Shown here: positions 21,519 to 28,808 of the stretch, in pieces
How the letters are laid out: every line of letters starts with the position of its first letter
How positions within the stretch are numbered: position 1 is the stretch's first letter
Origin: Chromatiales bacterium
GTDB lineage: Bacteria; Pseudomonadota; Gammaproteobacteria; JAJPIJ01
Assembly (NCBI GenBank): GCA_052388435.1
Contig: JBQTIC010000019.1
Location: forward strand, 13,769 to 77,768
Direction of reading: 5' to 3'
DNA length: 64,000 bases
Translations under genes and position numbers: made by a program
Notes under the pieces: generated by a model
The model's database searches: none
The model's input: the letters and a program-made list of their open reading frames with translations, nothing else
Told to the model about the DNA's origin: nothing

Positions 21519-21833
21519 ATGGCAAAGAGCATCTACGTGGGCAACCTCGCGCCCTCGATCACGCAGGAGGAGATCCGCAAACTGTTCGAGGAATTTGGCG
21601 AGGTCGAATCTGTCGAAATACTCATGGATCGGTACACCGGCGAGTCGCGCGGCTTCGGCTTTGTGAAGATGCCGGAGAAGGGTGCGCAGGCGGCAATCGC
21701 TGCGCTCGACAAGAAACTGGTGGGCGACCGAAACCTCAAGGTTAACGAAGCCACCCCGCGCAAGCTGAGCGGCGGATCGCGCCCCCGCGGAGGCGCATTC
21801 GGCAATGGCGGCGGTGGGCGTCGACGTTACTGA
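21519..21833 (+). CDS. RRM-type RNA-binding protein with glycine-rich C-terminus
   Basis: RNP-2 IYVGNL and RNP-1 RGFGFVKM motifs; C-terminal GGxRPRGGAFGNGGGGRRRY tail. Confidence 0.8.
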   Translation: MAKSIYVGNLAPSITQEEIRKLFEEFGEVESVEILMDRYTGESRGFGFVKMPEKGAQAAIAALDKKLVGDRNLKVNEATPRKLSGGSRPRGGAFGNGGGGRRRY

Positions 21834-23667: not shown

Positions 23668-24092
23668 TCACTCTGTTTGGTACCACCTTGCCGCCCGTCC
23701 CAATACCAGCTGTTTGACCTTGGCGGCAGCCGCAATCTCGCCGATTACGGACGGCGACATATGCAATCGTCGCTCTACGCCTTGCGCCCCTTCCGGGACG
23801 GCATTGTGGGCAATGAACACATCAGCGTCGCGAGCAAGTTCAGCGAGCGCCCCTTCGCCGTTCGTATCTTCGCTGAACACGGCACTGCGACCCGCCACCT
23901 CCACTCGCCAGGCGAGTGCCGGGATCGCGCCGTGGATGGCGGCTGTGGCAAACGCCTGCAGGTTCGCGCCGGAGTATAAAGATCCGCGCTGTGATCCACG
24001 TGTAAGTGGGTGAACAGCACCACATCGAGATCGGATACGGTGGCTCCTGATTGCCCGAATCGCAGCGCCGCGCCGCCGCCCATGTCGATCAA
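23668..24092 (-). pseudogene. disrupted metallo-beta-lactamase-fold hydrolase, frameshifted and probably N-terminally truncated
   Basis: HxHxDH motif (LFTHLHVDHSADL) in one frame (24092 down to about 23975); MBL C-terminal blocks (FIAHNAVPE...HMSP) continue in a second frame (about 23975 down to 23668). Neither frame alone gives a full MBL protein. Confidence 0.5.
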
Positions 24093-24191
24093 TCAGTGCA
24101 CGCCTTCTCTCGTGCCATATCAGATAACTGCTGGAGAGTCCATAGCGCCGCATTCATTCCGTCGCGCTCGAACGTTCGACATCCCCTGATC

Positions 24192-24638
24192 TCAGGAAGC
24201 ATCTCGCCTCCAGGGATCGTAGTTACCAAAGTTCCAGAGGTGGCCCTCTGGGTCCCGGCAGGAGTAGCCACGGCCACCGTAATCCTCATCCTTGATTTCA
24301 ATGACAATCTCTGCGCCGTTGGTAACAGCACGGGCATAGTGTGCGTCAGTATCCGCGACAATTACATAAGGGCTTTGCGAACCCACGCCGCCGAGATCGC
24401 GAGGCGGCTTCACAAGTTTTCCAAACGCATCATCCCTTGCGGACGCCACCATGATCATGCCGTTGCCAAACGTGAGCTGTGCGTGAGCGATGGTGTTCTT
24501 CTCGCCCGGCACGACAAGGAGCTTCTCGAACCCGAACGTTCGACACAGCCACTCGATAGCGGCCGGAGCATCGTGATAGGTCATGGTAGGGATTACCGTC
24601 GATGTCGTGTTCTTTGCGTGTTCGGTCATGCATCGCAC
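24192..24638 (-). CDS. VOC-family (glyoxalase/bleomycin-resistance fold, PhnB-like) protein
   Basis: 148 aa; paired beta-alpha-beta-beta-beta module pattern typical of PhnB/VOC proteins. Confidence 0.65.
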   Translation of the reverse strand: MRCMTEHAKNTTSTVIPTMTYHDAPAAIEWLCRTFGFEKLLVVPGEKNTIAHAQLTFGNGMIMVASARDDAFGKLVKPPRDLGGVGSQSPYVIVADTDAHYARAVTNGAEIVIEIKDEDYGGRGYSCRDPEGHLWNFGNYDPWRRDAS

Positions 24639-25054
24639 CTCGCTACTACGTGAATTCTCTTACAAGGATATGGGCGATATTGAGGTGGTGAGGCGCCCAG
24701 CAGCTCGAGAGAGTATAACGGGGCAGGACACCGTTCCAGTTCAGTGCACTTACGGACCGGGCATGTCCCGTGTGCGATGGACCAGCCGCCCGAGGCTCAA
24801 CACCCGGGCGGAACGCCGCCAATGCGCGTATAGTGATGATGTTTCCTGAGAGGTTGGCTCGAATTGAGCGCTCAGGTCGTGAAGTCCGGCGGACGTCGCC
24901 GATGGGCGCCGCCAGACTATCGCCGCAAGCTCGCCACCCTCTTAACCTCTTCGTCCGCACCGAGCCAACCGGTGCGCATGTTTTCCGCGCGAGCACATTG
25001 GTCCAGCCCATGAAGGCTCTGACAGAGCGGCGCAGATGACACTGATGGTCGGCA

Positions 25055-25088
25055 TCCGGGCAGGGCAACGCGGATCCGGCCCTTTTTT
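25055..25088 (+). promoter_or_regulatory. terminator/attenuator-like hairpin plus T6 inside the leader of the second RRM gene
   Basis: GC-rich imperfect stem containing the CGGATCCG palindrome, followed by TTTTTT at 25083-25088; 33 nt upstream of the RRM2 ATG. Confidence 0.35.
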
Positions 25089-25120
25089 CGACCTACCCAT
25101 CGCGATCAGAGACAAGATAT

Positions 25121-25405
25121 ATGGCAACCAGCATCTATGTGGGTAACCTCGCCCAGTCGACTACCAATCAGGACATTCGAGCCCTGTTCGAGCAGTTCGG
25201 CAAGGTCGAATCCGTGAACATATTGATTGACGGCCGCACGGGCGCGTCTGGAGGATTTGGTTTCGTGAAGATGAACGATGCGAGCGCGAAAGCCGCCATT
25301 GCCGCCCTCGATATGACGCTGCTCGCCGGACGGAATCTCGCAGTACACGAAGCGGCACCCCGTAGAGTCAGCGATGCATTCGGCCGGGGAGCCTGGCCTC
25401 ACTGA
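25121..25405 (+). CDS. RRM-type RNA-binding protein, second paralog
   Basis: IYVGNL RNP-2 and GGFGFVKM RNP-1 variant; 94 aa; lacks the glycine-rich tail of the first paralog. Confidence 0.75.
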   Translation: MATSIYVGNLAQSTTNQDIRALFEQFGKVESVNILIDGRTGASGGFGFVKMNDASAKAAIAALDMTLLAGRNLAVHEAAPRRVSDAFGRGAWPH

Positions 25406-25515
25406 GTTTGGCAGTATCACATCGACGGGGGCTGCGGGCCGCCTTCGATGTGAGCAACCAGATCGAACACTCATGCCGGTAGTACGAAATAACCGTCAAT
25501 AGGAGAACTGAAATC

Positions 25516-26010
25516 ATGCTCAAAGAGTTTGAACGGGTAAAGAAATGGCAGGCCTCTCCTGAGAAAATGGACGAAAGAATCAACAGACTCAGGACCGCGG
25601 AGGAGTGTGAAATATTCTCGAAAAACGTCACTGAACGTGGTTTCCCTGAACTCGCCGCCAGAGCTCAGCGCCGGGCCGTCGAGTTGCAGGCCGCCACACA
25701 CGACGCGCACAGTGAAGCAGAGAGAGACGCGCTGAAAGCCGTTTACGCCTACGAACAAATCCTCAGCAAAGCGAAGCTGAAGAAGACCCGTGCGACCGGC
25801 ACTTGGCAGCTGGTCAGGCGCCTCGGGGTTATCGGGGCGATACAGTCATTGGTAAATCGAAACGCCGGCGAGGCCCACTTTACGACATTGAAGGAAACGG
25901 GGATGCAAGACCTCGCATTCGAGTCGATAGTCTTGAAGCACCCTGAGGCATACATACCGGAGACTGTGGAGCGATGTGCTGCCCGTCTGGGAGAGTGGAC
26001 GCAAGCGTGA
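25516..26010 (+). CDS. hypothetical protein, 164 aa, in a lower-GC islet
   Basis: AGGAGA Shine-Dalgarno 8 nt upstream of the ATG; hairpin plus T-tract terminator at 26020-26051; no recognised domain; local GC clearly below its surroundings. Confidence 0.5.
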   Translation: MLKEFERVKKWQASPEKMDERINRLRTAEECEIFSKNVTERGFPELAARAQRRAVELQAATHDAHSEAERDALKAVYAYEQILSKAKLKKTRATGTWQLVRRLGVIGAIQSLVNRNAGEAHFTTLKETGMQDLAFESIVLKHPEAYIPETVERCAARLGEWTQA

Positions 26011-26131
26011 GAGTTCGCTGAAGAGCCCCGCCAATGCGGGCTTCTGTTTTATCCTGCAGAAGCAGCCTCTGGACTACCGCCACCCGACGGATCAACACCG
26101 TCATCAGAGATGGCGGACCTCGGTCGCGTCA

Positions 26132-26245
26132 TTAATGCATGAATCTCCTGCTCTCTTTCTTTGCCCTCTTCGCCGCCCTCTTTTCGTCTGCAGTCTTCGC
26201 GGGCTTCTTTTTGCTTTCCTTCTTCCGTTCCATACCTTTACTCAT
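26132..26245 (-). CDS. small lysine/arginine-rich protein, 37 aa, not in the supplied ORF track
   Basis: MSKGMERKKESKKKPAKTADEKRAAKRAKKESRRFMH; GGAGAG Shine-Dalgarno 6 nt upstream of the ATG; an in-frame stop 5 codons upstream confirms a stand-alone ORF. Confidence 0.35.
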   Translation of the reverse strand: MSKGMERKKESKKKPAKTADEKRAAKRAKKESRRFMH

Positions 26246-26681
26246 GTCTGTCTCTCCTCATGATCGAGGTTGATGTGACGTCAGCGGTTTTTCTAAGCAA
26301 ATCATAGAAAGTCTAGTTGACCGGCGCCGTTTCTTGTAGACAGTAAGGCAGTAAATTGGTTGGGTATCATAGCGTAAGGCGGACTGCCCGGTTGGACTAC
26401 CGATGTTTGATCAGATCATCGACGGTGAGCCCTGTACCTTTGGCGATTTGCCGAAGGGGCGGTTAAAAACGGGAGGTGTCTGTTACAGCACGCGGGGCGA
26501 ACGTAAGTTCGCTGAAATAATCGATGATGCGCTTCCATAAACCGGACAAACCTCCCCCTCGATTCGGTGCGGCGAACCCGCGATGCTCACGTTGCGCGCG
26601 TCGCGCGCGTCGCGGTTTCCCCTCACCCCTTCCCTCTCCCGCTGATGCGGGAGAAGGAGAGCAGGAAGGAATTGGGTAGGA

Positions 26682-28808
26682 CTAGGCGCGGGCGACTTCG
26701 ACCAAGTTGTCGAAGAAGGTCGGGCAATGGCCCATGCCGCCAAACACGGCCGGCGCGACACTGTTCACCGTACCTACCGGGTTGAGGGTCCGCCAGTAAC
26801 CCAGTGTGGCCACCACGATGCCGTGGTTCACATCGTCGGTGAGCCTGGCATTGCCGAGGAACTGGCCGTTGTCGTTGTACACGCGCACCTTGTCGCCTTC
26901 CTTGATGCCACGCGCGGCGGCGTCCCTGGGACTGATAAGGACGAACTGCTCGCCCTGGCCATGGATTTTCTTGGCCTCGTTCGCATAGCAGGAGTTGAGG
27001 AAGCCGTGGCTCTTCGGCGCGACGATGTTGAGGGGGTACTTCTTCGCCAGCTCGGCGTTGGTCTCCGGGCGGTAGCGCGGCGGCCGGTAGTCGGGCACCG
27101 GATCGATGGACTCACCGCCCTGCATGCCGTCGTACATCTGCCGGAACACGGTGGCGACGAAATCGCCGTTGGCCGCCCCGCTCGCGTGGATCTCGACCTT
27201 GCCTGAGGGGGTCGGGAAGTTGCCTGCCTTGTGCGGGCAGCGGTTGTCGGGCGTGCCCACATTGAGGTGGGCATAACCGATTTGATCGAAGGTATCCATC
27301 GTGATGCCCTGCATCGCTGGCGCGTCCCAATTGATGTGGTGTTCGATCATCTCGCGATCGCTCATGGTGAACTGCGGGTTGTCGAAGCCCATCAACTTCG
27401 CGAGCCGCCGGAAGATCTCCTGGTTCGGCAGCGACTCGCCCGCAGGCTCGATCGCCTTCTGGTTGTGGGTGAGATAGAAATGGCCCCACGACCACACCAT
27501 GTCCTCGGCCTCGGCGGCCAGCGACGCGGGCAGGATGATGTCGGCATAGGAGGCGGTATCGCTCATGAACTGTTCGGCGGCGACGGTGAAGAGATCCTCG
27601 CGTTTGAGTCCGGCGACGGTCTTGTCGCTTTCCGGCGCCTGGGTTACCGGGTTCGTGTTATATACGAACAGCGACTTGATCGGGGTTTTCAGCGGCAACT
27701 CGCCGGTAAGCGCACGGCCGGTTTGCAGGATGTTGACGACTTGCGTGCCCTCGGGGATCCAGTCCGGACGGCAGACGCGATCCCAGTGGATCGGGAACTC
27801 CCACACCGGCATCTCCAGCGTGCCGCCGCCGACATGCCGCCAGGCACCGATCAGCGCCGGCAGGATGGCCGCCAGGCGTATGGCATCTGTGCCCCCGGCA
27901 CTGCGCTCGAGCCCCACGCCGACGCGGATGGCCGCCGGCTTCACAGTGGCATACTCACGCGCGAGCTTGCGGATGTCGTGGGCCTTGATACCTGTGATGG
28001 TCTCCGCCCACTCAGGCGTGCACTTGAGCGCACGCGCCTTCAACTCTTCGAAGCCGGTGGTGTACTTCTCGATGTAATCGCGATCGAGCAGGTTCTCCGT
28101 GATGAGCACGTTGACCCACGCCATTGCGAGGGCGCCATCGGTGCCGGGCTTGATGGCGATGTGCCAGTCAGCCTTCTTGGCGGTGATCGACTTGTAAGCA
28201 TCGATGACCACTACCTTGGCGCCATTTTCCTGCGCGCGCCGGATGAACGGCCAGTGATGCAGATTGGTGGACAAGGTATTGCACGCCCAGATGATGATGA
28301 ACTTGGAATGGACAAAGCTTTCCGGATCCACCCCGCCGGTCGGGCCGACAGTCAGCAGCCAGGCGGTCGAAGAACCGGACGCGCAGTAGGTTTTTTCGCA
28401 AACGGTCGCGCCGAGGCGGTTAAAAAAGGCATCACCGGCGGTGATGCCATGCACGAGCCCCTGATTGCCGAGGTAGGAGAGCGGCAGGATCGCCTGCGCG
28501 CCGTGCTCCTTGATGATCGCGGTCCAGCGCTGCCTGATCTCGGCGAGCGCCTGCTCCCAGGAGATGCGCACGTACTGGCGGCTGCCTTTGGGTCCGTTGC
28601 GCTTCAAGGGGAACAGCAGGCGATCAGCGTTGTAATGGCGCTCGTCGTAGTCCTTGAGCTTCACGCACAGACCACCCGCCGTCATCGGATGATCCGCGTT
28701 TCCCTTCACACTGATGAGCCGGCCGTTTTCCACGGTATAAACAAAGGCACAGGTGTCGGGGCAATCGTGCGGGCAGGCGCCGTGATATGTCTTGATCTGA
28801 GCTGCCAT
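26682..28808 (-). CDS. cytoplasmic molybdopterin (bis-MGD) oxidoreductase, MopB superfamily, uncharacterised subfamily
   Basis: 708 aa; N-terminal 4Fe-4S cysteine motif CPHDCPDTC...C; molybdopterin-binding and C-terminal MopB-CT domains; no Tat signal. Confidence 0.85.
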   Translation of the reverse strand: MAAQIKTYHGACPHDCPDTCAFVYTVENGRLISVKGNADHPMTAGGLCVKLKDYDERHYNADRLLFPLKRNGPKGSRQYVRISWEQALAEIRQRWTAIIKEHGAQAILPLSYLGNQGLVHGITAGDAFFNRLGATVCEKTYCASGSSTAWLLTVGPTGGVDPESFVHSKFIIIWACNTLSTNLHHWPFIRRAQENGAKVVVIDAYKSITAKKADWHIAIKPGTDGALAMAWVNVLITENLLDRDYIEKYTTGFEELKARALKCTPEWAETITGIKAHDIRKLAREYATVKPAAIRVGVGLERSAGGTDAIRLAAILPALIGAWRHVGGGTLEMPVWEFPIHWDRVCRPDWIPEGTQVVNILQTGRALTGELPLKTPIKSLFVYNTNPVTQAPESDKTVAGLKREDLFTVAAEQFMSDTASYADIILPASLAAEAEDMVWSWGHFYLTHNQKAIEPAGESLPNQEIFRRLAKLMGFDNPQFTMSDREMIEHHINWDAPAMQGITMDTFDQIGYAHLNVGTPDNRCPHKAGNFPTPSGKVEIHASGAANGDFVATVFRQMYDGMQGGESIDPVPDYRPPRYRPETNAELAKKYPLNIVAPKSHGFLNSCYANEAKKIHGQGEQFVLISPRDAAARGIKEGDKVRVYNDNGQFLGNARLTDDVNHGIVVATLGYWRTLNPVGTVNSVAPAVFGGMGHCPTFFDNLVEVARA

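Follow-up and report, generated by a model that had tools for sequence, protein, structure and literature searches.

What does the lowest-GC kilobase of a bacterial genome segment encode, and how did it come to lie there? The segment is a stretch of 64,000 nucleotides on contig JBQTIC010000019.1 of a Chromatiales bacterium (hereafter the window). A first-pass annotation had described positions 25440-26480 as a lower-GC islet of about 1 kb, possibly acquired horizontally, with an open reading frame (ORF) for an orphan 164-residue protein that might be regulatory, defence-related or addiction-like. Here we find that the protein belongs to a large and hitherto undescribed family, absent from curated domain libraries, for which we use the name FAM. 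The core domain of the family recurs in front of nucleases. We favour, at a probability of roughly 0.4, the explanation that the window protein is a stand-alone copy of this nuclease-associated helical domain, serving as a small regulator or sensor that binds nucleic acid, probably on RNA and with an RNA recognition motif (RRM) protein.

A large family of small helical proteins

The window protein matched the FAM profile, made from alignment A3, over its full length (hmmsearch E 8.8e-59) and carries the conserved motifs of the family (C..F..NA, AVYAYE, K-x-RA-x-x-TW and G-[LM]-x-D-x-x-FE). An identical protein is already on record from a Chromatiales metagenome-assembled genome (MAG). The initial homology search gave 40 homologues with 42-83% identity, all of which are named only 'hypothetical protein' and none of which contains a Pfam domain. 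When 1.84 billion cluster representatives were searched with the profile, 825, mostly proteobacterial, matched at E ≤ 1e-3, of which 346 also reached E ≤ 1e-10. Across GTDB species, each represented by a single genome, 74 FAM loci were found, most of them in Halieaceae; the other hosts were Xanthomonadales/Lysobacterales, Burkholderiales and Methylococcaceae, with single MAGs of Planctomycetia and Bryobacterales. The protein is therefore no orphan, contrary to its earlier description.

FAM members usually have about 147 residues, and the clade of the window protein adds a conserved N-terminal extension of 17 residues. In the 164-residue ORF, this clade-specific extension (residues 1-17) is followed by a three-helix part (residues 18-60) and by the core domain (about residues 78-162). 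The AlphaFold2 model of the window protein is all-alpha with nine helices (predicted local distance difference test score 84.4, predicted template modelling score 0.77). The dN/dS ratio of the ORF was 0.15-0.19 against four relatives, which indicates purifying selection and thus a real and constrained protein.

Scans of the window protein and of 34-79 FAM members against Pfam, NCBIfam, PHROGs and PADLOC gave no reproducible match, and no Pfam family recurred among 79 diverse members. For these curated libraries the first-pass annotation was right that the protein has no recognisable domain. A PADLOC match to PDC-S15 (E 0.0022) was rejected as chance because it was present in only 1 of 34 FAM members. 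Searches of PDB sequences, by phmmer with the protein and with profiles A1 and A3, returned nothing below E 0.05. The remote-homology and structure checks that the annotation had proposed thus yielded an all-helical model and, as described below, a second related family, and no match to a solved structure by sequence or profile.

The core domain stands in front of several kinds of nuclease

Residues 78-162 are homologous to a family of proteins of about 106 residues (hhalign probability 97.2%, E 4e-11), and the hidden Markov model of this short family directly matches 89 FAM ORFs. The short family, represented by alignment A6, is very large: of the candidates scored, 2026 proteins match at E ≤ 1e-3. 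Some of its members have been named '5-methylcytosine-specific restriction enzyme A' by the Joint Genome Institute. The short family differs from FAM in that it is without the N-terminal three-helix part that defines the FAM family of about 147-164 residues, and in its carriage on plasmids, with 13 records versus 1 for FAM.

Among the best 150 FAM representatives, about one in ten are longer proteins with an N-terminal FAM domain. Fusions to an HNH domain (PF01844) are found in P0047 and P0132. The C-terminus of P0047 matches E. coli McrA (6ghc) at E 1e-27 and the PADLOC model mREase_IV ('Type IV methyl-directed restriction enzyme') at 9.5e-30; the protein has a separate middle domain before the HNH domain. 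Fusions to HNH_2 (PF13391) are found in P0163/P0189, P0180 and L114, and the FAM portion of L114 is 49% identical to the window protein. Five further fusions of about 515 residues carry a C-terminal E...D...ExK...Q pattern, which is typical of PD-(D/E)xK nucleases and by which they are putatively assigned to that class. The short domain is likewise N-terminal in a Bacillus toyonensis plasmid protein named 'HNH endonuclease' and in a Hydrogenophaga 'DUF3883 domain-containing protein' (plasmid pBPS33-1, L188 1-4266) whose gene adjoins an annotated ABC-three-component system. The core of about 85 residues therefore recurs before nucleases of two unrelated folds, namely McrA-like HNH/HNH_2 and DUF3883 or PD-(D/E)xK-like. 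The window protein matched no HNH or other nuclease model, and fusion was seen only in its relatives. In one further protein (L168 702-1793), the FAM domain is followed by a C-terminal region of about 190 residues that contains the glycine-rich motif HRGGVGGGRPGIGK and has no Pfam match; a gene for a short paralogue lies just upstream and overlaps this fusion gene.

The fused copies are solitary genes or lie inside a prophage or a defence island. P0189 is located in a prophage with RecT, 1.4 kb from a phage integrase, and P0160 is a solitary gene of Pseudomonas sp. dw_612 with no methyltransferase nearby. A stand-alone homologue that is 46% identical to the window protein, P0282, lies in a defence island inserted between rsmA and pdxA-surA-lptD (L184 401-7313). 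There it belongs to a tight operon of four genes, encoding in order a 106-residue member of the short family just upstream, P0282, and proteins of 203 and 391 residues, and this operon adjoins SPARTA (TIR-APAZ plus short pAgo) and PDC-S11. None of the four products has a Pfam or PADLOC match, and the operon is a candidate for a new defence operon. Among FAM members generally, the models of known anti-phage systems in PADLOC-DB v2 gave no reproducible match. The suggestion that the window protein is defence-related thus holds at the level of the family, through the nuclease fusions and the SPARTA/PDC-S11 island, and is not supported for a self-contained defence system; the window protein is probably neither nuclease nor toxin, and probably does not make up a whole defence system by itself.

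FAM and 106-residue genes lie side by side in at least six loci and sometimes overlap, which suggests that their products form heteromers. This arrangement would fit a domain that acts as a protein-protein module (adaptor, oligomerisation, autoinhibitory or immunity-like) controlling the activity or assembly of the nuclease. The stand-alone form would then act on a partner protein, as its adaptor or inhibitor, instead of binding nucleic acid. This partner could be the 106-residue paralogue, an RRM protein or a nuclease from another locus, and in P0047 the middle domain ahead of HNH could be the DNA reader. However, the same module precedes unrelated nuclease folds, which a shared substrate explains more easily than a shared partner, and no partner gene is conserved across the family. 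FAM proteins also tend to be basic (median pI 9.0, with 66% above 8), a property that speaks against such a module and agrees weakly with nucleic-acid recognition. We consider the protein-protein explanation the main rival of the favoured one, possible if rather unlikely.

RRM genes adjoin FAM in two clades, and other neighbours vary

The gene upstream of the window ORF encodes an RRM protein and belongs with the FAM ORF to a conserved cluster. In the nearest relatives, L090 and L091 (83% protein identity and 78-85% DNA identity to the window), the order is glyoxalase (-), RRM (+), a 109-residue Ea8.5-like protein (+) and FAM (+); in L089 it is a DHODB-type gene (+), RRM, Ea8.5-like and FAM. 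In the clade with 69% identity (L012-L014, L102 and L103), an Ea8.5-like gene lies directly upstream of FAM. The Ea8.5-like gene, whose product is homologous to Ea8.5 of phage lambda (PF20735, 103-109 residues), is chromosomal and was located at L089 3543-3854, L090 1772-2101 and L012 4611-4922. The unit is therefore RRM, Ea8.5-like where present, and FAM, with or without glyoxalase, rather than the FAM ORF alone.

A second clade has an RRM gene abutting FAM (P0020-24 and P0041/P0213; loci L004, L005, L021 and L096). In L021 the two genes are spaced by -11 nt, and in L004, L005 and L096 by between -4 and +4 nt; their co-transcription is thus almost certain. That the RRM-(Ea8.5-like)-FAM cluster has been kept together in the lineage of the window points to an RNA-related role.

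In Halieaceae (about 50 species), FAM has a fixed, core-like position in the order AraC, Usp, FAM, Ppk1 and DUF808, and its GC content at third codon positions (GC3) is native. This arrangement would be expected if FAM were an accessory protein of the stress response, small and chaperone-like or signalling, unrelated to nucleic acids and co-regulated with usp, ppk1, RRM/cold-shock-like, glyoxalase and msrAB genes; the window neighbours (glyoxalase, RRM, MsrA and MsrB) and an HSP20 gene nearby in L013 point the same way. We nevertheless regard a stress-response role as improbable. It leaves the recurrent nuclease fusions unexplained, the neighbours vary in other lineages, and the Halieaceae FAM gene has gaps of 160-350 bp on both sides, so that co-transcription is not implied.

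The low-GC block is shared with relatives and probably old

The GC content of 25440-26480 is 0.536 versus a window mean of 0.626 (z -3.3), the lowest of any 1-kb stretch in the 64 kb. Stretches of 1 kb that are nearly as low (GC 0.54-0.55) lie at about 12.2, 32.4 and 50.0 kb. The tract of low GC and low GC3 around the FAM ORF spans about 2.4 kb (about 24.1-26.6 kb) and four genes, with GC3 of 0.64 in the glyoxalase gene, 0.66 in the RRM gene, 0.65 in the FAM ORF and 0.64 in a 37-residue convergent ORF, compared with 0.77-0.84 in the flanking housekeeping genes (rimO, Mo-oxidoreductase, msrB and msrA). The reported shift in GC and codon usage is thus confirmed, over more than twice the extent of about 1 kb first given, and the tract deviates from its flanks as expected of an acquired islet.

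All three nearest relatives, which are short metagenome contigs, have this block at an equally low GC3, and none of them offers an empty site; in L089 its GC3 is 0.64-0.67 versus 0.79-0.80 in the flanks. Among the three, the gene order of the block is kept and the flanks differ. Homology to L090 begins at 24182, just beyond the glyoxalase stop codon; to the left, the window has rimO and an MBL-fold gene with a frameshift, where L090 carries a Crp/Fnr-like gene that the window lacks. L089 has the DHODB-type gene on the left and a GYD-like gene on the right, and its homology to the window covers 24809-26011 only. Because these relatives share the block at dS of about 0.5, any acquisition is probably old and shared, and the block is unlikely to be a strain-specific indel.

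The sole indel that we observed was the loss of the Ea8.5-like gene from the window. In the DNA alignment, 31 bp of the window (25406-25436) stand in place of 468 bp of L090 (1708-2175), and no remnant of an Ea8.5-like gene is present anywhere in the window, which indicates that about 440 bp including this gene were lost. A hairpin occupies the junction at which the relatives hold the gene (Table 1). The synteny comparison proposed to show whether the islet is an indel thus showed a block common to the relatives, from which the window has lost one gene.

Marks of mobility were sought around the block: the window contains no tRNA gene, the ORFs of 20.6-30 kb include no integrase, and repeats are short and at chance level. 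Stand-alone FAM was found in 1 of 72,556 plasmid records, a conjugative Microbulbifer plasmid, and in none of 50,697 GenBank phage records. Two predicted viral contigs of IMG/VR, L180 and L181 (5001-5435), encode a stand-alone homologue that is 41% identical to the window protein.

These data bear on the idea that the locus is an orphan module of recent acquisition that would suffice on its own for defence or addiction. Such an origin would account for the lowest-GC kilobase of the window with its lowered GC3, for the varying flanks among relatives and for the ties of the family to defence islands and prophage nucleases. On the other hand, a family with 825 representatives and 74 GTDB-species loci contains no orphan, and the block and its GC3 deficit are common to relatives at dS of about 0.5. 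Integrase, tRNA and flanking repeats are missing, the protein has no effector domain and matches no PADLOC, toxin or antitoxin model, stand-alone FAM is nearly absent from plasmids, phages and IMG/VR, and in about 50 Halieaceae species the gene has a fixed position and native GC3. Recent acquisition of such a module is accordingly improbable. The low GC3 of the block would instead go back to an origin that is old and shared, or to a codon usage specific to the cluster. What stands of the proposed horizontal acquisition is a discrete block with differing flanks; a recent or strain-specific event is unlikely. An addiction-like function is unlikely too: toxin and antitoxin domains are absent, the small neighbouring gene is convergent, and the pairing is not conserved across the family.

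Features of the locus

The features of the block are given in Table 1. The ORF and its Shine-Dalgarno sequence, the non-coding DNA on each side (110 bp 5′ and 121 bp 3′) and the convergence with a gene for a small basic protein are as first annotated.

Table 1. Coordinates of features in and around the FAM locus (window positions)
Feature	Position	Strand	Remarks
Glyoxalase/VOC-family gene	24192..24638	-	Left end of low-GC block; common to L090 and L091
RRM_1 RNA-binding protein gene, 94 aa	25121..25405	+	Pfam E 5.8e-19; low GC3
Stem-loop in the RRM-FAM spacer	25406..25463	+	-30.8 kcal/mol, z -4.35, without U-tract
Shine-Dalgarno AGGAGA	25501..25506	+	9 nt before ATG; read from sequence
FAM ORF, 164-aa all-helical protein	25516..26010	+	ORF list, homologue alignments, dN/dS
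Terminator-like GC hairpin and T-run	26027..26050	+	Begins 17 nt past the FAM stop codon
Convergent Lys/Arg-rich ORF, 37 aa	26245..26132	-	pI 10.9; own GAGGAG Shine-Dalgarno
AT-richer non-coding spacer	26246..26681	no strand	GC about 0.49-0.55; right end of low-GC tract

The assignment of a terminator of its own to the ORF held in part: the GC stem and T-run site (26027-26040, followed by CTTCTGTTTT) has the correct architecture, but its folding energy is unexceptional (z -0.96). The stem-loop between the RRM and FAM genes may serve in processing, attenuation or stabilisation. An Rfam scan of 24600-26800 gave one chance miRNA match only, and a sigma-70 promoter scan at the locus found none. 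The C-terminus of the convergent 37-residue ORF is conserved in relatives L090 and L092, and the spacer to its right precedes the 3′ end of the molybdopterin oxidoreductase gene.

Two observations concern the DNA further to the left. The MBL-fold hydrolase gene, directly left of the start of L090 homology, is split over two frames, with the motif HLHVDH in ORF 23775-24092 and the C-terminal half in ORF 23668-24153 (-); the split gene (23668-24153) is either a pseudogene or an assembly error of the MAG. A second RRM gene (21519-21833, +) precedes that of the block by 3.3 kb. It encodes 104 residues with a Gly/Arg-rich C-terminal tail and has 70-73% nucleotide identity to the RRM genes of L089/L090; a local dip in GC lies at 21.2-21.65 kb.

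Discussion

In restriction nucleases of Type IV-like kind, the module at the N-terminus usually recognises nucleic acid. The FAM domain resembles the N-terminal modules of McrA-type/Type IV HNH nucleases (the N-domain of EcoKMcrA and the SBD/SRA of ScoMcrA) in that it stands N-terminal to a McrA-type HNH domain, and, like these recognition modules, it also exists on its own. By analogy, the FAM domain would be a nucleic-acid recognition or targeting module. Since the 164-residue protein has no effector, its stand-alone form would be a small binder, acting as a regulator or sensor. In the lineage of the window, its target is probably RNA and its partner the neighbouring RRM protein.

HARE-HTH and similar small DNA-binding domains are also helical and occur alone or N-terminal to restriction-type nucleases, and FAM resembles them in this respect. 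Membership in HARE-HTH or another curated DNA-binding domain was not supported, as no Pfam model matched in the 79 FAM members. The likeness of the locus to bacterial single-RRM proteins (cyanobacterial Rbp, Bacteroides RbpB and NCBIfam NF058537) concerns the upstream neighbour and not the FAM ORF, and the window RRM protein scores 81 bits versus a cut-off of 100 for NF058537. The titles and abstracts of papers on bacterial RRM proteins name no partner protein that resembles FAM, and none is named in the literature on Ea8.5.

Several observations weigh against the view of FAM as a nucleic-acid-binding regulator. Adjacency to RRM genes occurs in two clades only, in about 8 of about 120 non-Halieaceae loci, and in 1 of 80 metagenome loci, which is on the same contig as L090. 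The fixed neighbours in Halieaceae, usp and ppk1, say little about nucleic acids. All-vs-all clustering of the neighbouring genes, in 88 loci at first and in 115 later, revealed no family-wide partner gene; synteny is clade-specific. A module at the N-terminus of a nuclease can also serve in regulation or oligomerisation, and one of the proposed nuclease classes, PD-(D/E)xK, is assigned from a motif only.

A bolder extension of the favoured explanation, which we regard as unlikely, is that the core of about 85 residues is an undescribed nucleic-acid-sensing fold of several classes of solitary defence nucleases. The abundant stand-alone copies, the window protein among them, would then read a particular DNA or RNA feature in trans. 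In some lineages, such a copy and an RRM protein would together form a two-component sensor, either post-transcriptional or anti-phage.

For the window, the result is a hypothetical gene that is conserved and lies in a low-GC block of probably old date, an ordinary feature of the genome that offers a lead for domain discovery. If the explanation proposed here is true, one recognition domain is common to thousands of small proteins now called 'hypothetical' and to the N-terminal ends of several classes of nuclease, and bacterial RRM proteins other than those of cyanobacteria and Bacteroidota would gain a first candidate partner in FAM. The ligand of the core domain would then aid the annotation of solitary restriction-like nucleases.
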